A DNA stretch of 38,345 nt, taken from NCBI GenBank assembly GCA_002427475.1, contig DIRG01000012.1, positions 1-38,345 of the forward strand, read 5' to 3'. Numbering within the stretch: position 1 is the first letter of the stretch; every line of letters begins with the position of its first letter. Both the position numbers and the translations under genes were made by a program. Positions 12,530-31,200 of this stretch are shown in pieces. Origin of the DNA: Mageeibacillus sp. UBA5442 (GTDB lineage Bacteria > Bacillota > Clostridia > Saccharofermentanales > DTU023). Below the pieces are notes generated by a model that worked only from the letters and a program-made list of their open reading frames with translations, had not been told where the DNA came from and did not search any database.

Positions 12530-12569
12530 TTGCCACTAAATAAGCGTTAAAATCTAAGAGTTTGAAAAT

Positions 12570-12609: not shown

Positions 12610-12654
12610 TTTAGCTTAGACAAGGTGAATGATTAATATTAAAGTTTTGAAAAA

Positions 12655-12682: not shown

Positions 12683-12843
12683 CAATACAATAATACTGAT
12701 ATTACGATACTCGTTTTAATTTACTCAAATGGAAGGATGCTTTTTCTTAGCACCTTTATATATAAAAATTGCTCTTTCGATCGGGATAAGCCAAATCCCC
12801 GCAGGAGGTCAGGAGGACCCTCCTATGAAAGGATAGCCTAATT

Positions 12844-14376: not shown

Positions 14377-15607
14377 GAGCTCCGGCAATAATAACTTAAA
14401 TAATGCAGTTCCTCCGGAACCTAGTCAGGATGAACTCTTTGAACAAGAAATAGCTTTAGCGGAACCGTCGCGTTTAAAGGGATCTTATAGTTTCTTCTCT
14501 TCAGTGATGGCCATCGTAACGGGACTGCTTGTCGGCCTAATTATTCTTGTAGTTGCGAACCCTTCTCGGGCCGGTATGGGATTGATAACTATTTTGCGTG
14601 GCGGGATTACCGGTAGTGCCACACAATTTGGCCAGTCTATCGCCACTTCAATTCCTATAATCATGACGGGTCTCAGCGTGGCCTTTGCTTATAAGGCGGG
14701 CCTCTTTAATATCGGGGCCTCGGGACAGTTTATGGTCGGCAGCGTCTGTGCCGTCTATGTCGCGATCAAAGGGACGATGATTCCGAGCTCGCTGCTCTGG
14801 CTGGTCTGTATGCTGGCTGCCATAGCCGGTGGAGCTATCTGGGGAGCAGTCCCGGGCATACTTAAGGCTTATTTCAAGGTCAATGAAGTTATTACTTCAA
14901 TTATGATGAACTATATTGGCATGTATCTCGTGAAAATAATTATTGAGCAGACGATCTATGACTCGCGCTATGCCAGAGCACAGACTATTCCTGGCAGAGC
15001 AGAGATACCGACACTTGGGCTTGATGCCCGTTTCCCCGGCACGAACCTGAATATAAGCCTTCTCCTCTGCGCTATTTTCTGTGCGCTGATTTATATCCTT
15101 GCATCACGTACAGTCTTTGGTTACGAATTGACTGCTGTCGGCTTAAACCCGGACGCCTCACGCTATGCCGGAGTTAATTCGCATCGCACAATAATCATTG
15201 CCATGGTCATCGGAGGAGCCTTAGCGGGAATCGGCGGATTCATGATGTATCTCGGCGGAACCGGCGTCTATATGGAAACTAATGAGATCATTTCGCCTCA
15301 GGGATTTAGCGGAATTTCCGTAGCCCTATTAGCGATGAATCATCCCATAGGGGTGTTTTTCTCAGGTCTCTTTATAGGGCATATTACGATCGGTGGAGAA
15401 AACTTGCAGTTGCACGGATATTCAAAAGAGATCATTGACATGATCATCGCAGTAATTATCTACTGTGCAGCCTTTTCACTCATCTTCAAACAGCTTCTAC
15501 ATCGAATCCTGCATGGTGAGGGTAGAAAAGATAGGACTCACAGAGGGCCGGGACCGAAGGGACCGGGACGCTACGCACGGCCTGAAGAAACGGAGGCATC
15601 CTTATGA
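14369..15607 (+). CDS. ABC transporter permease, system 2 (with N- and C-terminal hydrophilic extensions)
   Basis: Polytopic core colinear with 8005-9150. It overlaps the upstream stop by 8 nt. It carries an extra roughly 40-aa N-terminus and a Gly/Pro/Arg-rich tail. Confidence 0.85.
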   Translation: MSESSGNNNLNNAVPPEPSQDELFEQEIALAEPSRLKGSYSFFSSVMAIVTGLLVGLIILVVANPSRAGMGLITILRGGITGSATQFGQSIATSIPIIMTGLSVAFAYKAGLFNIGASGQFMVGSVCAVYVAIKGTMIPSSLLWLVCMLAAIAGGAIWGAVPGILKAYFKVNEVITSIMMNYIGMYLVKIIIEQTIYDSRYARAQTIPGRAEIPTLGLDARFPGTNLNISLLLCAIFCALIYILASRTVFGYELTAVGLNPDASRYAGVNSHRTIIIAMVIGGALAGIGGFMMYLGGTGVYMETNEIISPQGFSGISVALLAMNHPIGVFFSGLFIGHITIGGENLQLHGYSKEIIDMIIAVIIYCAAFSLIFKQLLHRILHGEGRKDRTHRGPGPKGPGRYARPEETEASL

Positions 15608-16557
15608 ATACTATTGCATTTATTGTTCAGCAGACAATGCTCTTCTCCATCCCACTACTTATAGTTGCTTTGGGCGGAATGTACTCAGAACGAAGCGGTG
15701 TAATCAATATCGGTTTGGATGGCGGCATGATTATGGGAGCCTTTACCGGCACCGTCTTTATTAATGCCATGCAAGGCTCGATGTCAGGGCAAGGCTTATA
15801 CGTACTGGCGCTGCTAATAGCAGGGCTGACCGGTTTGATTTTCGTAATCTTCCATGCCTTTGCCTCCATCAATCTCAAGGCGAACCAAGTTATCAGCGGT
15901 ACCGCTATGAATATGTTTGCTCCGGCTTTCGCTGTTTTCGCAGGGAGGCTGATCTTCGGAACGCAGCAAGTACCGTTTAGAGATACCTTCTTTATCCGCA
16001 GCATTCCGCTCTTGGGAGATATACCCATCATCGGACCGCTACTATTTCAGAGATGCTATATTTCGACTTTCATCGGAATTTTCATCTTTTTCGTAGCCTG
16101 GTTTGTAATTCAAAGAACTCCTTTCGGTCTGCGTTTGCGTGCCTGTGGTGAGCATCCCGGCGCGGCAGATACAGTCGGAATAGATGTACAGAAAATGCGC
16201 TGGGCGGGTACATTGATTTCTGGTTTCCTAGCGGGGCTTGGCGGACTGGCCTTTGTTGTCCCCACCTCGACCGAATCTAATGCGACAGTTTATGGATATG
16301 GTTTCTTGGCTTTGGCGGTATTGATTTTCGGTCAGTGGCGCTCATTCAAAATACTGGGAGCCAGCTTTTTCTTTGGCCTTATGAAAACCATAGCCTCAGC
16401 CTACTCCGCAATTCCCGGAATTAAAGAACTGCCCATACCGGCCACGGTTTATAAAATGATTCCTTATCTGGCCACCTTAATCGTCTTGATCTTCATGTCC
16501 AAACGATCACAGGCACCGGCTGCTGAAGGAATCCCCTACGAGAAGACAGGACGCTAA
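15604..16557 (+). CDS. ABC transporter permease, system 2
   Basis: Shares an ATGA overlap with the upstream gene. Polytopic, and a paralog of 9153-10115. Confidence 0.85.
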   Translation: MNTIAFIVQQTMLFSIPLLIVALGGMYSERSGVINIGLDGGMIMGAFTGTVFINAMQGSMSGQGLYVLALLIAGLTGLIFVIFHAFASINLKANQVISGTAMNMFAPAFAVFAGRLIFGTQQVPFRDTFFIRSIPLLGDIPIIGPLLFQRCYISTFIGIFIFFVAWFVIQRTPFGLRLRACGEHPGAADTVGIDVQKMRWAGTLISGFLAGLGGLAFVVPTSTESNATVYGYGFLALAVLIFGQWRSFKILGASFFFGLMKTIASAYSAIPGIKELPIPATVYKMIPYLATLIVLIFMSKRSQAPAAEGIPYEKTGR

Positions 16558-17882
16558 TGAGAATTTACGACCTAATTAAGAAGAAACGCGATGGCGGCGA
16601 ACATAGCAAAGAAGAACTGCGCTACATAATTGATGCCTATGTCGGCGATGAAATCCCTGACTATCAGATAGCGGCCTGGTTAATGGCTGTATATTTCCGC
16701 GGCATGAGCAAAGAGGAGACACTTGATTTTACTCAGGCTCTGGTCTTGTCCGGGGATCAGGTTGATTTATCCGCCATTGAGGGCATCAAAGTAGATAAGC
16801 ATTCCACCGGAGGAGTTGGTGATAAGACATCGCTGATCGTGGGGCCTATTGTTGCCGCTTGTGGAATGAAGGTAGCGAAAATGAGCGGTCGCGGACTTGG
16901 GCATACCGGAGGAACTCTAGATAAGTTGGAAGCGATTCCCGGACTTAAGACCGAACTGACAGATGAAGAATTCATCGAGCAGGTCCGAGACATCAGCATC
17001 GCGATTATAGGACAGACGGGGGACTTGGCTCCGGGGGACAAAAAGCTTTACGCCTTACGTGACGTGACCGCCACCGTGGATTCATTACCCTTGATCGCAG
17101 GTTCAATTATGAGTAAAAAGCTAGCCGCAGGCAGTGAGGCTATCATTCTTGATGTTAAATGCGGTAGCGGAGCTTTTATGAAGGAAGAGGCAGACGCAAT
17201 AGAGCTGGCACAGCTGATGGTCGATATCGGTGAAGGCGCCGGTCGTCGTACTGCTGCATTAGTCACGGATATGGACCGACCTCTAGGTCAGTGCATCGGC
17301 AATGCTATTGAAATTCTTGAAGTTATTGAGGTTTTAAAGGGAGGTGGTGCGGAAGATTTGAGGGAGCTCTGTCTGGAACTGAGCTCGAACTTACTGGCAT
17401 TGGCTGTAGCTGATCCCGAGCAAGATTACAGGGCGCTCGCTGAAGACGCTCTCGCATCCGGGAAGGCGCTGCAGTCGTTTGCTCAGATGATTGCAGCTCA
17501 AGGTGGAGATCCCGCGATTATAGAGGATCCCAGTCTCCTACCACAGCCGAAATACTCGGCGGAACTTATAGCATCACAAGAGGGCTGGATCAGCTCCATG
17601 GACACGGAGGCCTGCGGCATCGCATCGTCGATGCTGGGAGCAGGTCGCCTGAAGATGGATGATCAGATACAGCCTGCCGCAGGAATAAGACTTCACCGTC
17701 GCAGCGGTGAAAAGGTAGAAAAGGGTGAAATCCTCGCTGAGCTCTATACGGACGATGAGACACTTCTGTCCGCTGCAATGACAAAACTGAACTCGGCGTA
17801 TGGTTTTTCACAAGAAAAAGTAGAAAGAAAACCACTGATTCTCGCACGAGTGAGAAAAAATGAAGAAAGGTCATACAGCTGA
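16557..17882 (+). CDS. pdp: Pyrimidine-nucleoside (thymidine) phosphorylase
   Basis: 441 aa. Motifs DKHSTGGVGDKTSL and MSGRGLGHTGGTLDKLE. The start overlaps the upstream stop (TAATG). Confidence 0.9.
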   Translation: MRIYDLIKKKRDGGEHSKEELRYIIDAYVGDEIPDYQIAAWLMAVYFRGMSKEETLDFTQALVLSGDQVDLSAIEGIKVDKHSTGGVGDKTSLIVGPIVAACGMKVAKMSGRGLGHTGGTLDKLEAIPGLKTELTDEEFIEQVRDISIAIIGQTGDLAPGDKKLYALRDVTATVDSLPLIAGSIMSKKLAAGSEAIILDVKCGSGAFMKEEADAIELAQLMVDIGEGAGRRTAALVTDMDRPLGQCIGNAIEILEVIEVLKGGGAEDLRELCLELSSNLLALAVADPEQDYRALAEDALASGKALQSFAQMIAAQGGDPAIIEDPSLLPQPKYSAELIASQEGWISSMDTEACGIASSMLGAGRLKMDDQIQPAAGIRLHRRSGEKVEKGEILAELYTDDETLLSAAMTKLNSAYGFSQEKVERKPLILARVRKNEERSYS

Positions 17883-17928
17883 GTGTAGGCGGATAGGCAA
17901 AGCCTACTCTCGGCCTAAGGAGGTAGAA

Positions 17929-19059
17929 ATGAAAACTAAGAAATTTGTTGCCTTATTGTTGGCACTAGTAATGCTACTTGGCGTTGCTGCAGCCTGCAAC
18001 GGAGAAAGTGGAGATGATCTTCACAAGGAAGGAAGACAGGACGCAGATGGTAAAGCAGAAATTGCATTAATCACTGACGTAGGCACCATCGATGATAAGT
18101 CTTTTAACCAGGGATCCTGGGAAGGTGTTGTCAAATATGCTATAGATAATGACAAGACCTTTAAGTACTTTCAGCCCACTGAGAAATCAGACGCAGCTTA
18201 TATCAACTCTATCAACCTAGCGATAGAAGGCGGAGCAAAGATTATTGTGACGCCGGGTTTCCTCTTTGAGGGACCGATCCATACAGTGCAGGACCAATTC
18301 CCGGATGTCCACTTTATCCTGATTGACGGATATCCTCACGCGGGTGATTTTGTTCCGGACATTTCGGACAACGTTATTGGAATTCTCTACGCTGAAGAAG
18401 AGTCGGGCTATCTAGCCGGCTACGCAGCTGTACACGAAGGCTATCGTGACCTCGGCTTCATGGGCGGCATGGCGGTTCCCGCTGTTGTTCGCTTCGGCTA
18501 TGGTTTTCTGCAGGGAGCAGATGATGCCGCTGCCGAATTGAACTTGGCGGCTGGTGACATCAATGTTAAATACACATATGTAGGAAATTTTGATGCCACC
18601 CCGGAGAACGAATCAATGGCTGCCTCCTGGTTCCAGGAAGGCACTGAAGTAATCTTCGCTTGTGGCGGATCCGTCGGCACTTCTGTTATGAAGGCCGCTG
18701 AGAAAGCTGACACGAAAGTAATTGGTGTTGACGTTGACCAGTACGCTGAGTCCGATACCGTTATCACCTCTGCTATGAAGAACCTGGAAAAGTCGGTTAA
18801 TGATGCTATTGCCAGTATCTACGATGACAGCTGGGAAGGCGGCAGGGCTGTGACGCTCGACGCCACTGAAGGCTACACCATGATCTCTATGGAAAATGCT
18901 CGCTTTGAGAACTTCAGTCAGAGTGACTACGACGCTGTTTATCAGAAATTAGTTGACGGCTCCATCGACATCACCAAGGATCAAGATGAGAACGGTGAAC
19001 AGATTTTGGAACCGACAGAAATCGCACTGGACATCGTGGCAGTGGAAAACATCAAGTAA
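17929..19059 (+). CDS. BMP-family nucleoside-binding ABC lipoprotein, system 2
   Basis: Signal plus lipobox MKTKKFVALLLALVMLLGVAAAC, preceded by TAAGGAGGT. BMP core IALITDVGTIDDKSFNQGSWEGV and LYAEEESGYLAGYAA. Start set at ATG 17929 rather than the track's 17860. Confidence 0.85.
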   Translation: MKTKKFVALLLALVMLLGVAAACNGESGDDLHKEGRQDADGKAEIALITDVGTIDDKSFNQGSWEGVVKYAIDNDKTFKYFQPTEKSDAAYINSINLAIEGGAKIIVTPGFLFEGPIHTVQDQFPDVHFILIDGYPHAGDFVPDISDNVIGILYAEEESGYLAGYAAVHEGYRDLGFMGGMAVPAVVRFGYGFLQGADDAAAELNLAAGDINVKYTYVGNFDATPENESMAASWFQEGTEVIFACGGSVGTSVMKAAEKADTKVIGVDVDQYAESDTVITSAMKNLEKSVNDAIASIYDDSWEGGRAVTLDATEGYTMISMENARFENFSQSDYDAVYQKLVDGSIDITKDQDENGEQILEPTEIALDIVAVENIK

Positions 19060-19153: not shown

Positions 19154-21295
19154 TTAGCTTGCGATTGGGTTTCGCTGAAGCACAGGGGGTGTGGAACTTA
19201 AATCCCGAATGCGGAAGATGCGGAAGCAATTCAGGATGACCAAGAGAGTTACGCCGACATCAGCGAAAACTGCCAACCACATGGGCATGTAGCCGATTGT
19301 TGCTAAGAGGAGGAAGAGGAATTTCACTCCCAGTGCGAAGACTATGTTCTGACGTGCGATGCGCATGGTTTTTTTCGAAATCTTCAAACCCTTGAGCAGG
19401 GCGGACAGCTTGTCCTGCATGAGCACGACATCGGCCGCTTCTATTGCAGCGTCGCTGCCTAAGCCGCCCATGGCTACGCCTACATCTGCGATCATCAGAA
19501 CCGGAGCGTCGTTGATTCCGTCGCCGACAAAGCCGCTGCTACCGTTCGTTTCTTCGACTTTCGCTTTTTCCATCCAAGCCACTTTATCTTGAGGCAGCAA
19601 GGAGGCATGTACTTCTGCGATGCCGGCTTCCTTCGCAACTTCGCGGGCGAAAACTTCATTATCGCCGCTGAGAATTGCGATCCGCTCAACGCCTTCTTGG
19701 CGCAGTGCAGTTATGGTCTGTTGGGCTTCGTCCTTTAACTCGTCGCGGATGACGATGTGTCCCAGATAGCGGACCTTTTCCGCTGTAGGTACGGTGCTCA
19801 TTTCTTCATAGGTGCGCGTATCTCTGTAGGCGGGGATGATCGCCACATGGCTCATTGTCCATGCTTGGCCTTCACAGCCATCAGCGACAGCGCTTTCGTG
19901 TAACCCTAGCATTTTCATCAAGGCGGCATTGCCGAGATAGACGGTCGCCGGGAAGTCTACAGATAAATTCAAACCGTTGCTACTTTCGATCACGCCGCGG
20001 ATGCCGTGACCCGGAAGGGCGACGATGTCGGACAGACCTTCGGTAGATAAAGTGAAGCCGAGGGCTTCAGCGTGCTTGATGATGCTTTGGGCAATCGGGT
20101 GTGTAAAGCTCTGCTCTAATGTAGCGGCTAGTGCCACAAAGCGTTCTTCGTTAACATCTTCCTCAGCATGGGTGGCGATGACGCTGAATTCGCCTTTGGT
20201 CAGGGTTCCGGTCTTGTCAAAGGCCAGAGTCTTCAGGCGAGAGAGGTTCTCCAGATCGGTGCCGCCTCTGATGAGAACTCCGTGGCGCGAAGCCATGCCT
20301 AGGCCAGAAACGAAGGTGAGGGGAACCGAGATGACAAAGGCGCAGGGGCAGGAGACGACGAGGAAGGTGAGTCCGCGGTAAATCCAGGTCGAGAAATCTT
20401 GGCCGCTAAAGAGCAGGGGTGGAAGGACGGACACCAATAGTGCCAAAATCACGACGATCGGTGTATAGACACGCGAAAAGCGCCTGACTAACGTTTCGGA
20501 GTGGGCTTTACGCTGGGAAGCTTCTTCAACCATCGCCATAACGCGGCTGGCTGTTGATTCTGCATAGATAGTATCCGCTCTCATACGCAAGAGGCCGTCT
20601 CCGTTGACACTGCCGCTAAGAACCTTCGTGCCTGCGCTTGCCTCCAAGGGCAAGGCTTCACCGGTAATGGCTGCGGTATTGAGAGTGCTTCTGCCACTGA
20701 GAATAATTCCGTCGGTCGGGATAAGATCTCCCGCCTGAATCTCGAGAATGTCACCGATTGCGATGTTGACGGGGTCTATACGTTCGACTCCTTTTTCAGT
20801 GACGAGGTTGGCATAGGGAGCGGCAATATCCAAGAGGTCCGAAATCGATTTTTGCGATCTGCCGACGGCAAAATCTTCGAGGCGTTGGCCGATTTGATAG
20901 AGGATCATGACCAGAGCGGCCTCGGGATATTCACCTAGGATGACTGCGCCGACGGTGGCGACTGTCATGAGGAACTGCTCGTCGAGGATAAAGCCGGAGA
21001 AAAGTTTCTTCACTGCGCTGATCATGACTTCATAGCCGGCAAGGAGCCAGGCAAGAATTATCAAGGCGATGGAGACGGTGTCTTGGGCGAAAGCATATTT
21101 GAACAAAAGGCCAAGCAAGAAGGCGCCAATAGAAAGGAAGAGAAGGACAAGCTTAACGTTTGCCTGTCGCTCAGTTTTCGGCGGGGACTCATGACAACAG
21201 CCGCAGGAAGATAGGCCTCCCTGCGCTTCATTTGCACAGGAAAGGTCGACCTTGTGCTCTTCATGCTTTTCGTGAATTAGATTATTGTTTTGCAT
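19154..21295 (-). CDS. P1B-type heavy-metal-translocating ATPase, CPC type (Zn/Cd/Co/Pb class)
   Basis: Motifs DKTGTLT, GDGINDAP, TGEALP and the transmembrane SCPCAF. The last transmembrane segment reads ADVGVTLLVILN. No GMTCxxC ferredoxin-like domain is present. The N-terminus is instead His/Cys-rich (HEKHEEH, SSCGCCHE). Confidence 0.9.
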   Translation of the reverse strand: MQNNNLIHEKHEEHKVDLSCANEAQGGLSSCGCCHESPPKTERQANVKLVLLFLSIGAFLLGLLFKYAFAQDTVSIALIILAWLLAGYEVMISAVKKLFSGFILDEQFLMTVATVGAVILGEYPEAALVMILYQIGQRLEDFAVGRSQKSISDLLDIAAPYANLVTEKGVERIDPVNIAIGDILEIQAGDLIPTDGIILSGRSTLNTAAITGEALPLEASAGTKVLSGSVNGDGLLRMRADTIYAESTASRVMAMVEEASQRKAHSETLVRRFSRVYTPIVVILALLVSVLPPLLFSGQDFSTWIYRGLTFLVVSCPCAFVISVPLTFVSGLGMASRHGVLIRGGTDLENLSRLKTLAFDKTGTLTKGEFSVIATHAEEDVNEERFVALAATLEQSFTHPIAQSIIKHAEALGFTLSTEGLSDIVALPGHGIRGVIESSNGLNLSVDFPATVYLGNAALMKMLGLHESAVADGCEGQAWTMSHVAIIPAYRDTRTYEEMSTVPTAEKVRYLGHIVIRDELKDEAQQTITALRQEGVERIAILSGDNEVFAREVAKEAGIAEVHASLLPQDKVAWMEKAKVEETNGSSGFVGDGINDAPVLMIADVGVAMGGLGSDAAIEAADVVLMQDKLSALLKGLKISKKTMRIARQNIVFALGVKFLFLLLATIGYMPMWLAVFADVGVTLLVILNCFRIFRIRDLSSTPPVLQRNPIAS

Positions 21296-21325
21296 TAACT
21301 TTTTCTGCTCCTGAAAGAAGTAAGA

Positions 21326-21664
21326 TTATTCATTGATGTGCTCTTTGCCGACATCATAAAGGACTACTACGTGATCATCTGAGAGGCTGTAATAGATATA
21401 TTTTCCATCTCGACGTGACTTTACAAGGTTGTTATGGCGGAGGAGGCGCAACTGATGGGATATGGCCGAATCAGAAAGTGAAAGCAGTTCGGCCAAGTCG
21501 CTGACACAAAGTTCGTTCAGACGCAAGGCAGCAATTATTTGAACACGTGTGCTGTCGCCCATAACGGAAAACAAGTCTGCCAGTCGCGACATCTCTTCAT
21601 CGTGAGGCATTTCCTCTCTGATCGCTGATAAGTCACAGCGACAGTCGCTTTCTTTCTGTGTCAT
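21326..21664 (-). CDS. ArsR/SmtB-family metalloregulator with a complete alpha5 site
   Basis: 112 aa. Winged helix ELCVSDLAELLSLSDSAISHQLRLL. The C-terminal DDHVVVLYDVGKEHINE matches DxHx10Hx2E. An N-terminal CRC pair is present. RBS AGGAGG lies 6 nt upstream. Confidence 0.9.
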   Translation of the reverse strand: MTQKESDCRCDLSAIREEMPHDEEMSRLADLFSVMGDSTRVQIIAALRLNELCVSDLAELLSLSDSAISHQLRLLRHNNLVKSRRDGKYIYYSLSDDHVVVLYDVGKEHINE

Positions 21665-21780: not shown

Positions 21781-21809
21781 TTGACGCTCTAATCCAGAAA
21801 AACTATACT
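21781..21809 (+). promoter_or_regulatory. Candidate promoter P1 upstream of the riboswitch (TTGACG-17-TATACT)
   Basis: TTGACG at 21781-21786, a 17-nt spacer, TATACT at 21804-21809. Confidence 0.45.
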
Positions 21810-21846: not shown

Positions 21847-21873
21847 TTGACCACATAGAGTACAGATGATAAT
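21847..21873 (+). promoter_or_regulatory. Candidate promoter P2 immediately upstream of the riboswitch (TTGACC-15-GATAAT)
   Basis: TTGACC at 21847-21852 and GATAAT at 21868-21873. The spacing is short, but it places the start site at the 5' edge of the aptamer. Confidence 0.35.
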
Positions 21874-21875
21874 GA

Positions 21876-22076
21876 AAATTATCTGGGAAACAGGTGTGAA
21901 TCCTGTGCGGTGCCGCCGCTGTAAGCGATTTGATTAACTCTAGGCTCAGGCCAGCCACTGACGTTTTGTTGGGAAGGTGGGGTTAATGGTTTAAAACCGA
22001 TCGCAAGCCAGAAGACCGATCTGTATACTACAGAAGGATACAACGGAACATTGTTTCCCCTGAGCATGATATGTAT
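21876..22076 (+). promoter_or_regulatory. Cobalamin (B12) riboswitch
   Basis: Conserved core strings occur in the canonical order: GGGAA 21885, GGTG 21893, GAATCC 21898, CCGCCGCTGTAAG 21913-21925, GCCACTG 21954-21960, GGGAAGG 21971-21977, and the B12-box-like AAGCCAGAAGACC 22005-22017. The exact boundaries are approximate. Confidence 0.85.
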
Positions 22077-22112
22077 AAACGGCTACAAATCTAGGATTTG
22101 TAGCTGTTTTTT
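22077..22112 (+). terminator. Riboswitch expression-platform terminator
   Basis: Perfect 10-bp stem GCTACAAATC (22082-22091) / GATTTGTAGC (22095-22104), followed by TGTTTTTT. It lies 55 nt upstream of the ATG at 22167. Confidence 0.85.
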
Positions 22113-22166
22113 AATTTCTCAGGAGATAAAAGGAGACAAAAACTCATTATTTCGAAGGAGGAATTA

Positions 22167-24020
22167 ATGAAGAACAATTGGAGAAAGCATCTTGCTTTCA
22201 TCATCGCTTTTATTCTAATTCTGGCCACAGTGCTGCAAGCCTGCGCGCCGGCACAGACAGATCCTGACGGCAGTCAAACGATGGCAGATCCCACTGTGGA
22301 GTCAAGCTTGCCTTCTCAGCCAGTGGCAGAGACAGAAGTCAGCGAAGAACCTGATGGCGAGGAAGCGATCAGTGGCAGGTTCGTCCTTGCCGGAATCGCC
22401 GAGGATGCGAGCGCCGAGAATCCCTATCAGATCTGGCTGGATCTTCCCTTTTCTGCAGAAGAAGGCACTGATGCCTGGAGTCTGACCCAGGAGATTCTCG
22501 AAGAAAACGACTACGCTCTCGTCGAATCTGAATGGGGCAATCATATCCAAAAGCTCACTCCCCCCGCAGATTCCGGACAAGTCGAGGCCGAAGCCGCCGT
22601 GACGAATGGTCCCGATTCAAGCTGGATGTGGTCTTATAACGACAATGTCGATCAGCCTGCGCATGAATATTTGCTACAGGACGGTGACGTGATCCGCTGG
22701 TATTTCACCAATAACTGGGCTGATGACTACACTGGCCATCCCGAAACCCATTTTACTGACGAAGGCAATTCTGTGCAGGTCAAAGCCGATGCCGAAAGAC
22801 CTTCCGACTGGACAGCTTGGTGGTCCGCTTTTGCTTCTTCTATGGAGCACAACAACGTGAAAGAAATCGAACTCAGCCTCTCGGGCTTTGAGAGCGAAGA
22901 GCTCTTTACGTTCACACAAGAAGACGGAGACTGGTTCGATAGCTACTCAGATCCGCTACAGGTAGAAGAATGGATTTATCTGGTCTATTCCGACATTCTC
23001 TATAAAATCAATCAAGACGGAAGCATCGAAGATTCCGCTGCTCTGCAATTCCCGATCGATTCCAGTTCGCGCATAGCTTATGCCGACGGTCTCCTCTTAG
23101 TTCCCATGAAATACGGCAAAGTCCAAGCTCTGACTGCAGACAATTTGACTACAGCCTGGATTTCCGCTGCAGCCACCCAGATACTAGTGGAAGCCGAAGA
23201 CAGCCCGGGCAGCAAAGTGCCACATTTTCAGCAATCACTTAGCTCCCTGACTGTCGCGGATGGCCTTGTCTACCAAGCTCTCTGCACTGTCGGTTGGAGT
23301 GAACGCTCTTTCGGCGGCAGCTTTCGCGCGCTGGACCTAAATGACGGCAGCGTTGTCTGGGACTACAGTTCGGATGAGTCCGGCTTTTATTGGACCGGTG
23401 GAGCTATCCATGAAGACAGAATTTACGTCGGCAACGACAATGGTGAAATCATTGCCTTTGACCGCTTGACGGGAGAAATCCTTGAACAAAGCAGCTTACC
23501 CGCAGTAGATGGTCAGCCAGCTGCGATTCGTTCCAACATCGTGCTTCAGGACGACTTCCTCTTCTTTGTCTCAAAGGACGACGGCAGCCTCAATCGCATC
23601 GAAATTACTGACGGTAAATTGGGCAATCTCGAGCGCGTGCAATTCAGCGACAGCAGTACGGCCTCACCCACTATTCACGACGGCAAGGTTTATGTCGCCG
23701 GCAATAACAGCTTAGCTATCATCGATGCCGAGAGTATGCAGATTGAAAAAACTTACGAAATCGAAGGTTACATCCAGTCCACACCGCTCGTGCTCGAAGA
23801 CGGCAGCGGACGCGTATTTGTATATTTCACGATCAATAATGAAACAGGCGGCATCTACGGCGTCGCCACAGACAGTGACACAGTTCACACGGTTTTTACA
23901 CCTCACGAATCGCAGCAGAACTATTGTATGGCGACAGTGTCCGTGTCTCCCGACGGGACGCTCTACTACACGAATGATTCCCATACCTTCTTTGCGGTGC
24001 AATTGTTGGGGCTTAATTAA
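22167..24020 (+). CDS. Secreted lipoprotein: transcobalamin-like (DUF4430) domain fused to a PQQ/BamB-like beta-propeller
   Basis: Signal plus lipobox ILATVLQAC. Residues about 70-190 end in the DUF4430 signature SWMWSYNDNV...LLQDGDVIRWYF. The C-terminal half has repeated blade motifs (ADGLVYQA, EDRIYVGNDNGEIIAFDRLTGE, DGKVYVAGNNSLAIIDAES, PDGTLYYTN). RBS GAAGGAGG. Confidence 0.7.
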   Translation: MKNNWRKHLAFIIAFILILATVLQACAPAQTDPDGSQTMADPTVESSLPSQPVAETEVSEEPDGEEAISGRFVLAGIAEDASAENPYQIWLDLPFSAEEGTDAWSLTQEILEENDYALVESEWGNHIQKLTPPADSGQVEAEAAVTNGPDSSWMWSYNDNVDQPAHEYLLQDGDVIRWYFTNNWADDYTGHPETHFTDEGNSVQVKADAERPSDWTAWWSAFASSMEHNNVKEIELSLSGFESEELFTFTQEDGDWFDSYSDPLQVEEWIYLVYSDILYKINQDGSIEDSAALQFPIDSSSRIAYADGLLLVPMKYGKVQALTADNLTTAWISAAATQILVEAEDSPGSKVPHFQQSLSSLTVADGLVYQALCTVGWSERSFGGSFRALDLNDGSVVWDYSSDESGFYWTGGAIHEDRIYVGNDNGEIIAFDRLTGEILEQSSLPAVDGQPAAIRSNIVLQDDFLFFVSKDDGSLNRIEITDGKLGNLERVQFSDSSTASPTIHDGKVYVAGNNSLAIIDAESMQIEKTYEIEGYIQSTPLVLEDGSGRVFVYFTINNETGGIYGVATDSDTVHTVFTPHESQQNYCMATVSVSPDGTLYYTNDSHTFFAVQLLGLN

Positions 24021-24031
24021 GGAATGATTTT

Positions 24032-24517
24032 ATGCCGGTAAAGATAAGAAAAAAAGATAAGCAGCGTTCTGATCTCCGCCTTCTGACGCTGCTTCTAGTA
24101 CTCATTCTTCTAGTCGCAACTGCTTGCCAGAGCCAGGAGGAGGCAGTCTCGGAAGGCAGTATCGAGGTTCTCCTGTCCGTTGATTGCAGCAATGCAGTAG
24201 CGGCGGGGGTGCCGGGAGCAGATACCTACGAGCCGGATGGTGCTGTTTTAACTGAGGCTAAGATCCTCGTGGCTGAGGAGAGCTCCGTCTTGGATACACT
24301 GCAAGCGAGCGATTTGATCGTCAACACCAGCACGGCTGTCCTCGGCGTTTACGTAAAGAGTATCCAAGGGATCAGCGAAGGCAAAGGGGGCTGGATTTTC
24401 TCTATAAATGGAGAATTCCCGCATACATCAGCTTCGAATGTGCCTGTTGAAGCGGGCGACGAAGTAGCCTTTTATTACACCGTGACTCCGGGCGATGTGC
24501 CCGGCTCACCCTACTAA
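24032..24517 (+). CDS. Small DUF4430 (transcobalamin-like C-terminal domain) lipoprotein
   Basis: Signal plus lipobox LLVATAC. Carries the signature GKGGWIFSINGEFPHTSASNVPVEAGDEVAFYY. Confidence 0.7.
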   Translation: MPVKIRKKDKQRSDLRLLTLLLVLILLVATACQSQEEAVSEGSIEVLLSVDCSNAVAAGVPGADTYEPDGAVLTEAKILVAEESSVLDTLQASDLIVNTSTAVLGVYVKSIQGISEGKGGWIFSINGEFPHTSASNVPVEAGDEVAFYYTVTPGDVPGSPY

Positions 24518-24553
24518 AGCTTGTGCTTAAAAAGCGCAGCTAGGACGAAAGAT

Positions 24554-27256
24554 ATGCAGACTGGAAAACGAAAAAAGGTTAATTTGCGGGCGACACATCC
24601 CGCGCTATTGATACTCTATTTTTTCTCAGCAATAGTCTTTTCTATGTTGACGCTTAATCCTGCCTATCTTCTAATATCCTTCATTGCGGCACTCTGCCTG
24701 AATTTCTATCTGGAGGGTGTAGTGAAAACACTGCGTTTTCTCCGCTATTTCGTGCCGGTGCATTTGCTCCTGGTGCTAGCTAATGCACTTTTCAGCGGCA
24801 ATGGGCTTACCGTCATCTTTTACCTGCGCGGGCGGCCTGTAACGCTGGAGAGCATTGTCTTCGGATTTGCGGCCGGTCTGATGCTGCTAACGATCCTGCT
24901 CTGGTTTCGCGCCTATCAGGAAGTCTCCAGCTCGGATCAAATAATTGCCATGGGCGGGAAGCGCTTTCCACAGACCAGCTTGCTGCTGGGCATGATACTG
25001 CGCTACGTGCCGGACACCCTTCAGCATGGTCAGAAAGTTAAGATGAGTCAGAATGCGCTCGTCGGGACAGAGAAGCTGCCGCGGAAGGAAAGGCTCGCTT
25101 TCTACACGAGGATGTCTACGGTCCTCATGAGCTGGAGTATGGAAAATGCTCTGGATACTAGTATCGCCATGCGGGCGAAAGGTTTCCCTTCAGAACAGCG
25201 CAGCAGCTATAAACGCGAACGCTTCAGCAGCTATGACGCCGTCGGAGTGGCCTTTCTTCTGCTCATGATTCTGCTGCAAATAGTAGGCTACGCTAGGGGT
25301 TTGACCGCGTTCCAATATTATCCAATTTTGAACTGGCAGACGGAGATGAGCAGCGAACTGATAGTGATCTTGACTGTGTATGCGCTCTTCTTGTTTTTCC
25401 CCTTTTATGTGGAGCTGGCCGACTGGTGGAGCCTCAAAAAGATCAGGCGAGCCGAAGAACAATTTAGTAACGAGCGCTTGAATCCTTGGCAGGCGCAAGA
25501 GAGCGGAGAGAGAAGTCAGGAGAAAGAGACGATTGTGAAGAAGAAGGAAAATGCACAGAGGATTGCTCCTCGAAGCGAATACCAAAGCGATTGCTACGAC
25601 TCGGTCTACGCTGTTGAACTTGAGGATCTGTCTTTTACTTATCCGAACTCCGGGCAGAAGGCCCTGGACAATCTCTCTTTGCGCTTTGAACGTGGGAGTC
25701 TTATCCTCCTGACCGGAGCGTCAGGCAGCGGAAAAACGACCCTACTACGCGTGCTTGCTCCTGTTTTGACACCGGCGGGAGAGCTGAACGGCAACAGAAT
25801 TATTTACGGGGAAGAGGCTGCGAGCTACGAAAGCGCTGAAAAAACTGTGCAAATCGGTTTCGTGCAGCAAAATCCGGACAATCAGATTATTCTCGATAGT
25901 GTTTGGCACGAGCTGGCTTTCGGGCTGGAGAATAAAGGATTGTCTCAGCAGGACATCGAAAGGCGCTTAGCAGAAACCTCCACCTTTTTCGGTATCAGCG
26001 ATTGGATGGATCGCAAGGTGTCCGAATTATCAGGAGGCGAAAAACAGATCCTCAATCTCGCATCCAGCCTTGTGATGCAGCCGGACTTGCTGCTCTTGGA
26101 TGAGCCGATAGCCCAACTCGACCCCATCTCCCGCAAGCGCTTTCTCTCTTTGCTGGGGCGTGTTCACGATGAAACGGGAACCACCATTGTCATCTCAGAA
26201 CATGTCATTGACGATATCTTGCCGCACGCAGATAGTGTCATACAGTTGGAGGCTGGAGCGGTGAGCTTTTCTGGTGGGGTCGAAGCCTATCTGAGACATT
26301 TGACCGCTACGGACGATAAATTTCAGATTTCGATCCCCTTATCTGCGCGCATGGTAGCGCAGAACGGCGCCGGCAGCGAAGGTGAAACAGAAGCAGCCCT
26401 GCCTCTGACGGTGCGTGCTGGCAGGCAGTTTTTGCAAAAACACAAAGCCGAACTGGCAACAAAACCCGAAACCCCGACCCCTACTTCGCTCGATCTGAGC
26501 CAACGTACAAATATCCTAGAGGCGCGAGATCTCTGGTTCCGCTACGAAAAGGACGCGCCTTTTGTCCTGCGCGGAGCCTCTCTAACAATTAAAGAGGGCG
26601 AGTTGCATGCCCTTCTGGGTGGCAATGGCTCCGGCAAAAGCACATTGATGTATATTTTAAGTCGCAGCTTGCCGGCCCTACGCGGCAAGATAGTCAGGGC
26701 ACCTGGTCAGGAAGTTGCCATGTTGAATCAGAACCCAATGTCGGTGTTTTCGCAGGACAGCGTCCGAGCTGAACTGATGGAGTTTCGCCAGCGCTTTTCC
26801 TACGATGAGAGCGACGTAAACTCCATCATGGAGCGTCTCAATCTGACTCATTTGGCCGAGCGACATCCCTACGATCTGTCCGGCGGAGAAATGCAGAAAA
26901 CGGCCTTGGCTAAAGCGCTTCTGACGAAACCGAACTTGCTCTTGTTAGATGAACCGGTAAAAGGCTTAGATCCCGTAGCCAGACGCGAGCTCTCGCAGAT
27001 ATTAGTCGAATTGAAAGAAAGCGGAATGACGATGATTCTCATCACGCATGATTTAGATTTCATCTCACAACTGGCAGACCGCTGCTCCCTCATCTTCGAC
27101 GGCCGCGTGGAAGGAACAGCCGATAGTAGAGAGTTCTTCGCAGACAATGCCTATTTCACGACGACAGCCCGCCGTTTGAGCAAGGGCATCCTGCCCGACA
27201 TCGTGACCGAAGACGACTTGCTCGAGCGCCTGCGCTCGCTAAACGATAGGAGCTGA
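24554..27256 (+). CDS. Fused ECF transporter module: T component (EcfT/CbiQ-like) plus two ATPase domains (EcfA-EcfA')
   Basis: The N-terminal roughly 300 aa is polytopic. Two full ABC domains follow: GASGSGKTT/LSGGEKQ/LLLLDEP and GGNGSGKST/LSGGEMQK/LLLLDEP. Start set at ATG 24554 (the track uses TTG 24521), so the start is uncertain. Confidence 0.8.
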   Translation: MQTGKRKKVNLRATHPALLILYFFSAIVFSMLTLNPAYLLISFIAALCLNFYLEGVVKTLRFLRYFVPVHLLLVLANALFSGNGLTVIFYLRGRPVTLESIVFGFAAGLMLLTILLWFRAYQEVSSSDQIIAMGGKRFPQTSLLLGMILRYVPDTLQHGQKVKMSQNALVGTEKLPRKERLAFYTRMSTVLMSWSMENALDTSIAMRAKGFPSEQRSSYKRERFSSYDAVGVAFLLLMILLQIVGYARGLTAFQYYPILNWQTEMSSELIVILTVYALFLFFPFYVELADWWSLKKIRRAEEQFSNERLNPWQAQESGERSQEKETIVKKKENAQRIAPRSEYQSDCYDSVYAVELEDLSFTYPNSGQKALDNLSLRFERGSLILLTGASGSGKTTLLRVLAPVLTPAGELNGNRIIYGEEAASYESAEKTVQIGFVQQNPDNQIILDSVWHELAFGLENKGLSQQDIERRLAETSTFFGISDWMDRKVSELSGGEKQILNLASSLVMQPDLLLLDEPIAQLDPISRKRFLSLLGRVHDETGTTIVISEHVIDDILPHADSVIQLEAGAVSFSGGVEAYLRHLTATDDKFQISIPLSARMVAQNGAGSEGETEAALPLTVRAGRQFLQKHKAELATKPETPTPTSLDLSQRTNILEARDLWFRYEKDAPFVLRGASLTIKEGELHALLGGNGSGKSTLMYILSRSLPALRGKIVRAPGQEVAMLNQNPMSVFSQDSVRAELMEFRQRFSYDESDVNSIMERLNLTHLAERHPYDLSGGEMQKTALAKALLTKPNLLLLDEPVKGLDPVARRELSQILVELKESGMTMILITHDLDFISQLADRCSLIFDGRVEGTADSREFFADNAYFTTTARRLSKGILPDIVTEDDLLERLRSLNDRS

Positions 27257-27258: not shown

Positions 27259-27978
27259 ATGATTAAGCCAGAGCGCAGCCCACAGCAAGCCGACTCCTAT
27301 ATGCACCTGCCGGCGATCTTCTCTTTGATCCTACTACCGGTGGCGCTCTTGCTCCTGGCCTACTATCAGGTGGAACAGACAGCTCTCTTGTCTTTTGTGG
27401 CGGTGATCGCTGCACTCTTGCCCTTTTTTATCAGCTTTGAAAGACGCAAACTGGCTGTGCGCAACTTGCTCCCGATAGTAGTGATGACCGCTCTGGCAAG
27501 CGCCGGCCGTCTACTCTTCGCTGCTGTTCCTGGCTTCAAACCTGTTCTAGCGATCATCATCGTGACGGCCATAAGTTTCGGTCCCGCTAGCGGCTTTATG
27601 ACGGGTGCTCTAACTGCCCTAGCCTCGAATCTGTTTTTTGGTCAAGGACCTTGGACTCCTTGGCAAATGTATGCTTTCGGACTTATTGGCTATCTAGCCG
27701 GCCTGCTGCAAGAGAAGGCTGCGTTCAAACGTCCGCTTTTCGTGTATATCTATGGTTTCTTCTCCGCCTTTCTTTACGGCATCATCCTCGACACCTGGCA
27801 TGTCATCAGCTTTTTGAAGCCGATCACTTGGCAAGGAGCTATACTCGTGTTCGGCCAAGGTGCGATCTTTAACTTTCTCTTAGCTGTAGCGACGGTGGTT
27901 TTTCTTATTCCGATCAGAGCTCCTTGGACTCGCCAGCTTGAACGCATTAAGCAGAAATTCGGCCTTACTGCCGGCTGA
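27259..27978 (+). CDS. ECF transporter S (substrate-capture) component, candidate corrinoid-specific (CbrT-like role)
   Basis: 239 aa and entirely hydrophobic, with about 6 transmembrane segments. AGGAG RBS 6 nt upstream. It lies immediately after the T-A-A' gene and under the B12 riboswitch. Confidence 0.65.
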   Translation: MIKPERSPQQADSYMHLPAIFSLILLPVALLLLAYYQVEQTALLSFVAVIAALLPFFISFERRKLAVRNLLPIVVMTALASAGRLLFAAVPGFKPVLAIIIVTAISFGPASGFMTGALTALASNLFFGQGPWTPWQMYAFGLIGYLAGLLQEKAAFKRPLFVYIYGFFSAFLYGIILDTWHVISFLKPITWQGAILVFGQGAIFNFLLAVATVVFLIPIRAPWTRQLERIKQKFGLTAG

Positions 27979-28192
27979 TATTTTCAACTTTTCTCGGCTC
28001 ACGGGCCATAAATCATGAAAGATTACTCTGCTCATTTGGGAAAGAGCACATTTACTACACGCTAGTTTGGGCGAACGTGCTAAAATACTTGTGTATGCGT
28101 AATTAGCAACACTGTATAGAACTGCTCGCATGTCTTGCATCTGCAAGCACGTGCATGAAATAAAGGAACAATTGGAAGGAGATATTGTCCTG

Positions 28193-29542
28193 ATGAAATT
28201 AGAAGCAAAAAGAATTAAACGACATATGGTCAGAACTTATGAATTTTGGCAGATGAATCTGCGCATCTTGGTTATCGCAGAGGACCAAAAGAAAGTCTTG
28301 GAGGATTTTGAGGATAAGCTGCCGGCGAGTGATAGCGGCTATCTGGCTTTTGCTTATCTAGATAACGAACTTCGCATAGCTTTCCTAGGAACAAGCGACG
28401 ACGAGACTGATGAATACGAATTTTTCGATACAAAAGAGATCTTCACCATTCCGGCATCTGCTGTGCCAACCCTCTTGGTTCGCCTCGTGAAACTTAATGC
28501 AGAATTGGCTGAGAATGCTTTCATTCAACAGGCAATACAGGAACAGGCTAACAAAGCTTTGCCCATGAGCACGCTCACAATTCGCGCTCTCGATTCCTCA
28601 CGCGATCCCGAAATACCTACTCGATTAAGAGCCTTCCGGATTGAAGACGAGAAGAAAATCCAAGAGCTTATAGAGCTTGATGCGATGCGGCAAGCGGCCT
28701 TGGAAGAAGCGGAAGAAAAAGCTGCCGCCGCCGCCAAGAAGGCGAAGAAAGCTAAGAAAAGGAATCGCGAAGAATTGGAAGAAGCAGCTGAAGCTGCTGA
28801 AGACGAGATCGAAGAAGTTTATGAGGACGAAAGCCTCATGCTCGAGATAAATATCGCGGACGAGTTGGCGAAATCCTTAGAAACCCTCTGGGTGTACGAC
28901 CTGACTCCGGCCAATAATGGCGCTTGGCGAGCAAATCTGGAAGCGAACCTCAAAGGTTCCAAGTTAAAGGCCAACGATTTGGTTCATATAGAATTACGCT
29001 TTGTGGAAAGAGAAGATGACGAAATCGCTCTTGTCTTTGTCGATCCCGAAGCAGAGGTCGAAGATATTAAGATTGAAGTCAGCTCGCATGTCGCCACCAG
29101 ATTACCTTGGCGTAAGGCTTATGAGTTGGAATGTTTGGAAAACCATGACTTCCACGAGACCTATTACCTGGGACGCAACGGCGAAGATAGCAAGCTGTTC
29201 AACAAGATAGTCGCCGACATTCGCCATGGTCGTTTGGATCCGGCTATGTATCTGGATATGGTGCAAAAAGAAGACGTCTCACTTGATTTCTCTCGCGAAC
29301 TCTATCGTTGCCGTCACTGCGGCGATCTGCATGTAACTAGGCGCTTACGTTTGGTGACACCGGAAAGTACCATGTCCGAACCCTATTACTGTCCCAAATG
29401 CGGCGAGCGCTCTTCACAGGTGAAGCGCGTACATATCGCATCGTTGAATTGTCCTGTCTGTCACAGACCCTTAGATATGAAACCGGAAAAGGTTTGGTAT
29501 GCGTCAGATGAAGAGGACGACAGCATCTTGCTGGAGGAATAA
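28193..29542 (+). CDS. Hypothetical protein: N-terminal unknown domain, E/K/A-rich charged helix, C-terminal triple-CxxC zinc-ribbon region
   Basis: GGAAGGAGA RBS at 28174-28182 supports ATG 28193 (the track starts at 28130). CRHC, CPKC and CPVC lie in the last 90 aa. Low-complexity EEAEEKAAAAAKKAKKAKKRNREELEEAAEAAEDE sits mid-protein. I recognise no family. Confidence 0.6.
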   Translation: MKLEAKRIKRHMVRTYEFWQMNLRILVIAEDQKKVLEDFEDKLPASDSGYLAFAYLDNELRIAFLGTSDDETDEYEFFDTKEIFTIPASAVPTLLVRLVKLNAELAENAFIQQAIQEQANKALPMSTLTIRALDSSRDPEIPTRLRAFRIEDEKKIQELIELDAMRQAALEEAEEKAAAAAKKAKKAKKRNREELEEAAEAAEDEIEEVYEDESLMLEINIADELAKSLETLWVYDLTPANNGAWRANLEANLKGSKLKANDLVHIELRFVEREDDEIALVFVDPEAEVEDIKIEVSSHVATRLPWRKAYELECLENHDFHETYYLGRNGEDSKLFNKIVADIRHGRLDPAMYLDMVQKEDVSLDFSRELYRCRHCGDLHVTRRLRLVTPESTMSEPYYCPKCGERSSQVKRVHIASLNCPVCHRPLDMKPEKVWYASDEEDDSILLEE

Positions 29543-30675: not shown

Positions 30676-31200
30676 ATGATTTTCGAAATACCGAGCAAGT
30701 CCGAAATGAAGACTAATTTCCATATCGGCACTCATGTTGATGCCCCTTACCACATGCAGGAGAACGGCAAGAAGATGGTCGAGATGGATCTGAAACTCTA
30801 TTATGGTCCTAGCACGGTCTATGATTTGACAGAACTTGAAGATGCCATTAATCGTTCCGATCTGGAAAAGCTAGAGCTTCAGCCCGATGACATCGTGCTC
30901 TTCAAAACCCGCAATTCTTATGATGACGCTTGGAATCCAAAGTTCGTTTATCTGGCACCTGATGCTGCTCGTTACTTGGCGGAGATCGGCGTGCGCAGCG
31001 TAGCCTTGGACGCCATGAGCATAGAACGTAATACTGAAGATCACGAAACTCATCACATCCTCTTTGACGCCGGCATTGGCCTAATTGAAGACGTACGCCT
31101 CGCAGATGTTCCTGCAGGCCGCTACACGCTCAGCGCCTTGCCTTTGGCAATGACTGAGGCCGAAGCTTCACCCACCAGGGCCATACTTATCGAGGAATAG
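30676..31200 (+). CDS. Cyclase-family protein (arylformamidase / kynurenine formamidase-like). The N-terminus is displaced by an apparent frameshift
   Basis: HIGTHVDAPYH metal motif. The frame stays open upstream to 30601 and encodes the family N-terminus IYDISRPLNDETAVY. The RBS-served ATG at 30611 is in another frame (see finding). Confidence 0.7.
   Translation: MIFEIPSKSEMKTNFHIGTHVDAPYHMQENGKKMVEMDLKLYYGPSTVYDLTELEDAINRSDLEKLELQPDDIVLFKTRNSYDDAWNPKFVYLAPDAARYLAEIGVRSVALDAMSIERNTEDHETHHILFDAGIGLIEDVRLADVPAGRYTLSALPLAMTEAEASPTRAILIEE

Follow-up and report, generated by a model that had tools for sequence, protein, structure and literature searches.

A candidate B12-controlled operon for corrinoid uptake in Mageeibacillus, with DUF4430 and beta-propeller lipoproteins ahead of a CbrT-like transporter

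Competition for vitamin B12 and its analogues shapes gut communities, and the machinery for capturing these compounds is known in detail for Bacteroides only; according to a 2026 review, the way in which Gram-positive bacteria capture cobamides outside the cell "remains entirely uncharacterized" (PMC13616437). A computational description of a possible Gram-positive counterpart dates from the definition of the SLBB superfamily by Burroughs, Balaji, Iyer and Aravind (2007, Biol Direct 2:4; PMC1796856). These authors noted a transcobalamin-like SLBB clade with signal peptides and Gram-positive anchors, consisting of secreted or anchored proteins, and they listed one architecture, from a Clostridium protein, in which the domain is fused to a beta-propeller. 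Besides genes for CbiO and CbiQ, the operon often contained another SLBB gene, a paralogue of the first, and the hosts were usually without B12 biosynthesis. They predicted that the proteins scavenge B12 or its precursors, and guessed that the propeller is a polysaccharide tether. Here we analyze a locus of this kind on a 38,345-nucleotide (nt) stretch of DNA from Mageeibacillus sp. UBA5442 (assembly GCA_002427475.1, contig DIRG01000012.1, positions 1 to 38,345 of the forward strand; hereafter "the window"). A B12 riboswitch there precedes four genes on the same strand, which encode a 617-amino-acid (aa) protein with a DUF4430 domain and a propeller, a 161-aa DUF4430 protein, and the two polypeptides of an energy-coupling factor (ECF) transporter. 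A role of this operon in corrinoid uptake has good support from the riboswitch, the CbrT-like transporter component and the conservation of the arrangement in relatives.

The locus shares with the 2007 description the anchor, the transcobalamin-type beta-grasp domain, the propeller fusion, the paralogue, the transporter genes and the prediction of B12 scavenging. The earlier study differs in being purely computational, in drawing on few genomes, and in making no mention of the riboswitch or of CbrT; its example is a C. tetani protein (gi 28210494), whose propeller may or may not be of the family described here. What is added to the 2007 picture is the linkage to riboswitches of two classes, the CbrT identity of the transporter, the breadth of occurrence in Coriobacteriia, the variation in DUF4430 copy number, and the existence of propeller-only members. 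The core idea was nonetheless predicted computationally in 2007, and systems of this kind are known computationally, not biochemically; a literature search found no experimental study of these bacterial DUF4430/propeller proteins. A first-pass annotation of the window, made from the letters alone, therefore overstated the novelty of the system, given that the architecture, the operon and B12 scavenging had all been predicted (PMC1796856).

Several known systems resemble parts of the operon. BtuG, BtuH and BtuJ of Bacteroides (PMC6143338, PMC10404256, PMC13616437) are, like the two surface proteins described here, riboswitch-controlled surface lipoproteins that are thought to capture cobamides ahead of a membrane transporter. 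BtuG is a seven-bladed propeller exclusive to Bacteroidetes (PMC6143338). It caps the outer-membrane transporter BtuB, whereas the 617-aa protein fits the eight-bladed BamB best and comes from a host without an outer membrane; the two share the general propeller fold only. Family scans found no TonB-dependent transporter among the proteins of the Mageeibacillus operon, which encodes an ECF transporter instead. Another partial likeness is the lsa1836-1840 operon of Lactobacillus sakei (10.1101/864751), which also combines ECF S, AA' and T components with secreted transcobalamin-beta-like protein(s). That operon has a separate alpha-toroid-like protein, Lsa1840, at the place of the propeller gene; it was assigned to heme, and no riboswitch was reported for it.

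The Cobalamin aptamer was identified with the RF00174 covariance model, which bears out the first-pass placement of both surface-protein genes under a B12 riboswitch. An aptamer followed by a hairpin and a T run is the usual layout of B12 "off" switches that act by attenuating transcription, and the hairpin is the probable expression platform, which would attenuate transcription with B12 bound. A ribosome-binding site, GAAGGAGG, lies immediately 5' of the ATG of the 617-aa protein gene, and the four genes are spaced by only 11, 3 and 2 nt. The unit is taken as the riboswitch plus four genes, because the upstream genes are divergent and a gap of 151 nt separates the S-component gene from the next gene downstream. 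The upstream neighbours (19154-21664, - strand) encode an ArsR-family regulator and a heavy-metal-type P-type ATPase and diverge from the riboswitch promoter region. The gene beyond the 151-nt gap (28130-29542, + strand) encodes an acidic 470-aa protein with C-terminal CxxC pairs, which gave only weak zinc-ribbon matches and no family match.

The last two genes of the operon encode the transporter. In a phmmer search with the 239-aa protein, the sole PDB match was 6fnp_A (E 9.5e-7), with residues 67-235 aligned to chain residues 9-177 (169 residues); we take this chain to be CbrT, the label in the PDB table reading only "Membrane protein". The same protein matches Pfam ECF-ribofla_trS (E 1e-6). 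The 911-aa protein combines a T component with two ECF ATPase domains, and because these domains are fused, their TIGR04520 and TIGR04521 matches fall below the curated full-length cut-offs. Pfam CbiQ found no match in the N-terminal 340 residues; identification of this part as a T component comes from its match to EcfT in the PDB and from the Pfam CbiQ match of its homologue in Candidatus Soleaferrea massiliensis. ECF-CbrT of Lactobacillus delbrueckii imports cobalamin and cobinamide (PMC5997447), and the operon can thus be said to encode a CbrT-like ECF transporter with predicted cobalamin/cobinamide transport. The S component is homologous to that of L. delbrueckii (6FNP) over its whole length, and the EcfT parts are homologous as well. 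In L. delbrueckii, however, CbrT uses a shared group II ECF module and has no extracellular accessory protein (PMC5997447), whereas the window has a dedicated module, with T, A and A' fused in 911 aa, and two surface-protein genes ahead of it.

Both of these surface-protein genes exist as the first-pass annotation described them, and the C-terminal motifs that it quoted as signs of DUF4430 are present in the translations. For the 617-aa protein, Pfam was sub-threshold and could not alone establish the domain, so that profile and structure methods were needed; a repeat Pfam scan of the N-terminal domain (E 0.013) was again insufficient alone. In an hhalign comparison, a profile of the N-terminal domain built from 23 family members matched the family of the 161-aa protein with 97.3% probability (E 2e-11, 110 columns), and PF14478 is significant at the corresponding position in 24 of 36 divergent relatives. 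An AlphaFold2 model of residues 64-200 has a predicted local distance difference test (pLDDT) score of 92, and all 19 of its PDB matches at E<=1e-3 (Foldseek) are intrinsic factor, transcobalamin, haptocorrin, or 3U7Z, a DUF4430 structure from Ruminococcus gnavus; the next matches, SUMO/ubiquitin, appear only at E>=0.04. The fold matches to the beta domains of transcobalamin, intrinsic factor and haptocorrin (5no0/5np4, 2pmv/3kq4, 4kki) range from E 1.6e-5 to 8.5e-4, with a template modelling (TM) score of 0.65 normalised to the isolated beta domain. The signature W...N-G...GD..W/F-Y of such domains is present, and sequence identity is only 11-18%. Direct sequence comparisons with the PDB gave faint matches: the N-domain profile placed haptocorrin and transcobalamin on top at E 0.45-0.74, and single-sequence phmmer with the 617-aa protein returned weak BamB and YncE matches only. 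Taken together, the profile and model comparisons confirm the predicted domain as a member of the DUF4430/transcobalamin-like SLBB clade, with a beta-grasp fold.

The animal B12 carriers are soluble and contain an alpha/alpha-toroid; here the partner of the beta-type domain is a propeller, and the protein is predicted to be membrane-tethered. Neither the 617-aa nor the 161-aa protein has a match at E<=0.1 to alpha/alpha-toroid, prenyltransferase or cobalamin-binding families, and the full-length model of the 617-aa protein is all-beta beyond residue 115, apart from two very short helices. An identity as a full carrier of the transcobalamin, intrinsic factor or haptocorrin type was rejected, since the N-terminal alpha/alpha-toroid was not found in either protein. 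There is likewise no alpha/alpha-toroid protein in the operon of the window or at two of the related loci surveyed (L001 and L003).

The propeller itself was recognized correctly in the first-pass annotation as PQQ/BamB-like. PQQ_2 matches residues 385-611 with E 5e-17 (62.7 bits against a cut-off of 27.6), and the best Foldseek match of the full-length model is BamB (E 6e-17; TM 0.71-0.82 normalised to BamB). BamB (YfgL), an outer-membrane assembly factor of Gram-negative bacteria, is the best match in both sequence and structure. The model has about 35 strands between residues 231 and 615 and fits the eight-bladed BamB best, over 385-399 columns, a fit rather than a count of blades on the coordinates; the modelled propeller is probably eight-bladed. 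The family profile, compared with all PDB sequences at E<=10, found BamB, the "Cake" designed propellers and single blades of quinoprotein dehydrogenases, and the best 50 Foldseek matches of the propeller comprise BamB, the designed eight-bladed Cake8 and tetrathionate hydrolase. BtuG is absent from both sets of matches (3DSM in the case of the profile). Kinship with BtuG was rejected on sequence, and with it the first-pass claim that one polypeptide unites both B12-capture architectures, the transcobalamin-type domain and a BtuG-type propeller; of the two parts, DUF4430 alone belongs to an architecture known to bind B12. Orthology with BamB was also rejected, at 35.7 bits against 285.2 for TIGR03300 and 27.4 against 423 for NF008351 (NCBIfam); the likeness to BamB is one of fold class, not of orthology. 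No PQQ-enzyme family of NCBIfam reached its cut-off, which led to the rejection of a PQQ-enzyme identity. Within the family, conservation is highest in the propeller, where such non-structural residues as W398, Y408, W409, R455, N557 and D604 are invariant in 36 divergent sequences.

The 161-aa protein was readily assigned to DUF4430 by PF14478, as had been proposed, and single-sequence phmmer found no PDB match for it. Its Cys32 and lipobox are invariant in seven homologues. The PROSITE-style lipobox pattern upheld the lipoprotein signals proposed for both proteins, the lipid-bearing residues being predicted as Cys26 and Cys32. The G+LPPv2 pattern, which is stricter, fits neither, one protein having Gln at -2 and the other a long n-region. 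Both proteins are predicted to be lipid-anchored at the surface. Relatives without the lipobox Cys carry a C-terminal LPATGE followed by a hydrophobic or transmembrane stretch and a basic tail, i.e. a sortase signal, and the LPATGE-type tail is absent from the three lipobox-type members among 14 aligned relatives.

Table 1. Features of the riboswitch-linked operon in the window
Feature	Nucleotides	Residues	Strand	Basis and remarks
Promoter-like site TTGACG-17-TATACT	21781..21809		+	Consensus scan, 10/12 positions; pattern match only; just 5' of riboswitch
Cobalamin riboswitch aptamer (RF00174)	21847..22038		+	cmscan, 86.9 bits vs gathering 31.5, E 2.8e-20, full model
Terminator-like hairpin, 15-bp stem and T run	22077..22119		+	Terminator scan and the sequence itself
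617-aa surface lipoprotein (predicted)	22167..24020		+	Open reading frame, family scans, lipobox, structure models
Signal and lipobox of 617-aa protein	22242-22244	Cys26	+	ILILATVLQAC, PROSITE lipobox pattern
Linker of 617-aa protein		27-65		Low confidence in model
DUF4430/transcobalamin-beta-like domain of 617-aa protein	22362-22721	~66-185	+	Profile and model
Connector of 617-aa protein, between DUF4430 and propeller				Conserved RPSDW..WW motif
PQQ_2/BamB-like propeller of 617-aa protein	22857-24011	~231-615	+	
161-aa lipoprotein (predicted)	24032..24517		+	Open reading frame, PF14478, lipobox
Lipobox of 161-aa protein	24125-24127	Cys32	+	LVLILLVATAC, PROSITE pattern
DUF4430 of 161-aa protein, single copy	24281-24481	84-150	+	PF14478, E 3.5e-11, 43.8 bits vs 23.8
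911-aa fusion of ECF T component and two ECF ATPase domains	24521..27256		+	TIGR04520/TIGR04521, ABC_tran, EcfT match
T-component part of 911-aa protein		~1-340		EcfT 5d3m_D/6fnp, E 4.3e-4
ATPase domains of 911-aa protein		365-611 and 641-880		Two ABC_tran; TIGR04520/TIGR04521, E ~1e-84
239-aa ECF S component, CbrT homologue	27259..27978		+	phmmer vs PDB and Pfam

A word-indexed search with the 617-aa protein detected only 14 relatives, in metagenome-assembled genomes (MAGs) of Eubacteriales, Fastidiosipila and Oscillospiraceae, the best annotation among them being "PQQ-binding-like beta-propeller repeat protein". When 1.84 billion cluster representatives were searched exhaustively, 2,768 relatives emerged at E<=1e-3, of which 237 reached E<=1e-30. 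Many of these align unbroken to query residues 60-612 within proteins of 1,000-3,000 aa. Larger relatives add wall or stalk modules (aBig_2, Flg_new, dockerin and Big_2). When one genome per species was scanned, a relative was encoded in 527 genomes of Clostridia and Coriobacteriia, the top match being a Mageeibacillus MAG with 93% identity. The Clostridia carriers include Oscillospiraceae, Acutalibacteraceae, Yeguia, Soleaferrea and Faecalibacterium, and the Coriobacteriia carriers include Collinsella, Olsenella, Slackia, Eggerthella, Raoultibacter and Enorma. The Gram-positive status of the host is taken from the taxonomy of the closest relatives.

The gene neighbourhood was surveyed at 81 non-duplicate loci by searching six-frame open reading frames (ORFs) with the window proteins, and the commonest order, found at most of the loci, is propeller protein, DUF4430 protein, ECF T, ATPases and CbrT. 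Downstream genes were counted at the 58 loci with at least 5.5 kb of downstream DNA. A separate DUF4430 gene lies 3' of the propeller gene at 53 of these, ECF-T is present at 43 and CbrT at 42, and at 40 all three are found with order and strand conserved. In Candidatus Soleaferrea massiliensis (locus L038, 5195-11518), a riboswitch is followed by a propeller-only protein, a DUF4430 lipoprotein, CbiQ, the ATPases and the S component. The propeller protein in this case has 544 aa, no DUF4430 and a sortase-type tail, and the lipoprotein has 259 aa, with a long Ser/Ala/Pro linker and one DUF4430 domain.

At 83 loci, including two repeat copies of the same contigs, we counted the DUF4430 domains that immediately precede the propeller on its N-terminal side. 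One copy is found at 33 loci, two at 27, three at 4, four at 5 and five at 2, so that a fusion exists at 71 of the 83; at the other 12 the propeller stands alone and is followed by the DUF4430 lipoprotein. Because of these 12 loci the propeller is regarded as a core partner. The constant element is the pair of a propeller and a DUF4430 protein, with fusion frequent and optional, a pattern which suggests that the two act together. Five DUF4430 copies precede a single propeller at loci L044 and L049, and four Collinsella loci (L059, L061, L063 and L064) have ORFs of 3211-3344 aa, around 6001-10032, with two consecutive modules, each of two DUF4430 domains and a propeller.

A B12 riboswitch was found upstream at 52 of the 70 loci with at least 400 nt of DNA 5' of the ORF. 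RF00174 lies upstream on the same strand at 23 of the 24 Clostridia loci tested and at one Atopobiaceae locus. The Coriobacteriia have a riboswitch of a different class: four loci reach the gathering score of AdoCbl-II (RF01689), and a 42-nt AdoCbl-II core occurs with at most 7 mismatches at 29 loci, as found by a pattern search with mismatches allowed rather than by covariance-model calls. The core is always upstream and on the + strand, and its stem varies in a compensatory manner, from TCGGGG/CCCCGG to GCGGG/CCCGC. The leaders of locus L001 (8606-8702) and of 28 other Coriobacteriia loci have this AdoCbl-II-like core, GGGAATCGGGGTGAGAGTCCCCGGCTATACCAGTAACCGTAA. Standard annotation misses it because the score is often under the Rfam gathering score, as at L001 (28.4 bits against 36.5); indeed, Rfam at its gathering threshold calls no riboswitch in L001-L003. 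The exceptions to riboswitch linkage are mostly Atopobiaceae, namely L026, L036, L042, L043, L045-L047, L052, L053, L056, L057 and L082, where L046, L047 and L057 were checked with the 42-nt motif only. In this set, which comprises Olsenella, Tractidigestivibacter, Parafannyhessea and allies, the propeller protein, the DUF4430 gene and ECF-CbrT are kept, and the propeller proteins are mostly about 1,900 aa (about 1,060 aa in L053). The operon may start further upstream than 6 kb in Atopobiaceae, or it may be regulated differently. Flavin mononucleotide (FMN) riboswitches were seen near the B12 module at two loci, L019 (1109-1273) and L029 (7790-7924), at the latter 3' of the DUF4430 gene, at the expected place of the ECF genes.

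The riboswitch, the CbrT-like S component and the conserved gene order are best read as signs that both surface proteins take part in capturing corrinoids before these reach the S component. Specifically, we consider it reasonably likely that this is a B12-repressed corrinoid uptake operon in which tethered DUF4430 domains capture the ligand, the propeller clamps it or serves as a dock, and CbrT imports it. When cellular B12 is low, the riboswitch would permit read-through past the terminator and the four proteins would be made. The 617-aa and 161-aa proteins would be lipid-tethered outside the membrane, the smaller one holding its single DUF4430 domain near the membrane and the larger one displaying, beyond a flexible linker, its DUF4430/SLBB domain and BamB-like propeller at the surface. 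The DUF4430 domains would bind corrinoid in the manner of the isolated beta domain of human transcobalamin, which binds cobalamin and cobinamide (PMC5599065). The alpha and beta domains of transcobalamin assemble only with cobalamin (PMC5599065), and the propeller might take the place of the alpha/alpha-toroid partner, either closing over the bound corrinoid or docking the small DUF4430 protein. The ligand would then pass to CbrT in the membrane and be imported via the fused EcfT-A-A' module. The capture role proposed in the first-pass annotation is hence supported by the genomic context, although the BtuG-type architecture that went with it is not; its further suggestions of high affinity, "piracy" and a second specificity of the surface proteins are speculation.

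More tentatively, the whole family may form a dedicated, modular corrinoid relay of Gram-positive gut bacteria and anaerobes, in which a surface receptor made of zero to five DUF4430 domains and an eight-bladed propeller delivers cobamides to a DUF4430 lipoprotein near the membrane and this in turn to ECF-CbrT, the propeller acting as a toroid substitute or as a dock. In the Isd relay of Staphylococcus aureus, NEAT receptors anchored in the wall by sortase hand a tetrapyrrole inward, first to a lipoprotein of the membrane and from there to an ABC-type importer. The logic is similar, and relatives such as that of Soleaferrea have a sortase-type propeller protein together with a DUF4430 lipoprotein. 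The domains, however, are unrelated, the two proteins of the window are both predicted lipoproteins, and the hand-off is a proposal. If such a relay exists, it would be a functional counterpart of both BtuG/H/J of Bacteroides and staphylococcal Isd, built from unrelated parts.

A number of points weigh against corrinoid capture by the surface proteins. The PF14478 match of the 617-aa protein is partial and below the Pfam cut-off (residues 148-181, 14.8 bits against 23.8, E 0.04), and a binding site could not be confirmed from sequence in any case, because transcobalamin contacts B12 mostly through backbone atoms (PMC1796856). The full-length model (pLDDT 79.7, predicted TM score 0.68) places DUF4430 and propeller only tentatively relative to each other, with low confidence in the connecting segments 139-147 and 221-227. 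As a rule, ECF S components work without a binding protein outside the cell (PMC5997447), and the 617-aa and 161-aa proteins may thus be dispensable for transport. Most Atopobiaceae loci have the ECF genes, yet no B12 riboswitch was found there within the available 6 kb. Finally, the L. sakei relatives have been proposed to be heme handlers (10.1101/864751).

The last point raises the question of whether the substrate here is heme or another tetrapyrrole rather than a corrinoid. The ECF operon of L. sakei, with its transcobalamin alpha- and beta-like proteins, was tied to heme uptake, with docking of heme (10.1101/864751), and Staphylococcus lugdunensis has an ECF heme importer (PMC7299338). 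We nevertheless find a heme substrate very hard to reconcile with a B12 riboswitch of one class or the other in the window and at 52 of 70 related loci, and with an S component whose sole PDB relative is the B12 transporter CbrT. If the propeller were an enzyme of quinoprotein-like or hydrolase-like kind for extracellular corrinoid remodelling, this would account for the weak local matches to PQQ alcohol dehydrogenases and the structural matches to tetrathionate hydrolase. That reading too seems highly improbable, for the quinoprotein matches are to single blades and are weaker than those to BamB (2.5e-5 to 1.3, compared with 1e-10 to 1e-7), no PQQ-enzyme family reaches its cut-off, and the best match, BamB, is not enzymatic.

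Less remote, though still unlikely in our view, is a division of labour in which DUF4430 alone handles the ligand and the propeller is a passive tether or spacer that attaches to peptidoglycan or capsular polysaccharide, the role proposed for the SLBB-propeller fusion in 2007 (PMC1796856). The aBig_2, Flg_new, dockerin and Big_2 modules of the larger relatives would suit such a role. BamB, the structural match of the propeller, is a protein-docking scaffold that neither binds small molecules nor acts as an enzyme. On the other hand, a second tether seems redundant in proteins already anchored by a lipobox or LPXTG signal, and the conservation of the propeller, with its invariant non-structural residues, exceeds that of the rest of the protein. 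The propeller-only proteins, moreover, retain their position under the riboswitch, and they argue that the propeller is a functional core rather than a tether. The same docking capacity could be turned outward: because BamB-type propellers are platforms for protein-protein interaction, the propeller might be a receptor for foreign B12 carriers, such as host intrinsic factor and haptocorrin or bacterial binders, from which DUF4430 strips the vitamin in true piracy. Many carriers of the family are gut bacteria, e.g. Collinsella, Eggerthella, Slackia and Faecalibacterium, and BtuG2 is able to take B12 from intrinsic factor (PMC6143338). We think this quite improbable: several of the closest relatives are MAGs whose record titles give no habitat, which leaves a tie of this lineage to animal hosts conjectural.

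Corrinoid capture by the tethered DUF4430 domains with import by CbrT therefore stays our preferred reading, and the operon and its relatives provide a concrete, testable candidate, the more so as cultured Collinsella, Slackia, Eggerthella, Olsenella and Yeguia carry relatives. Confirmed binding would explain how a thick cell wall can be bridged to supply ECF vitamin importers, which are held to need no binding protein, and would set the origin of the beta domain of animal transcobalamin in a bacterial context.

Other genes of the window lie outside the operon. A 427-aa Peripla_BP_2 protein (2948-4231, + strand) belongs to the same binding-protein class as BtuF and FhuD; its gene is isolated, having neither permease genes beside it nor a riboswitch. 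A nucleoside-salvage cluster (1343-19059, + strand, and 31187-32452, - strand) encodes three Bmp/PnrA-type binding proteins and two ABC sets, each with a double ATPase and two BPD_transp_2 permeases, as well as two PNP_UDP_1 phosphorylases, a pyrimidine-nucleoside phosphorylase, an amidohydrolase and an S-adenosylhomocysteine hydrolase. Near the end of the window (34926-37733, - strand), a 935-aa fusion protein combines a complete GH65 phosphorylase, with its N, catalytic and C domains, and a HAD-type hydrolase domain, and may represent a phosphorylase joined to its phosphatase or mutase partner.

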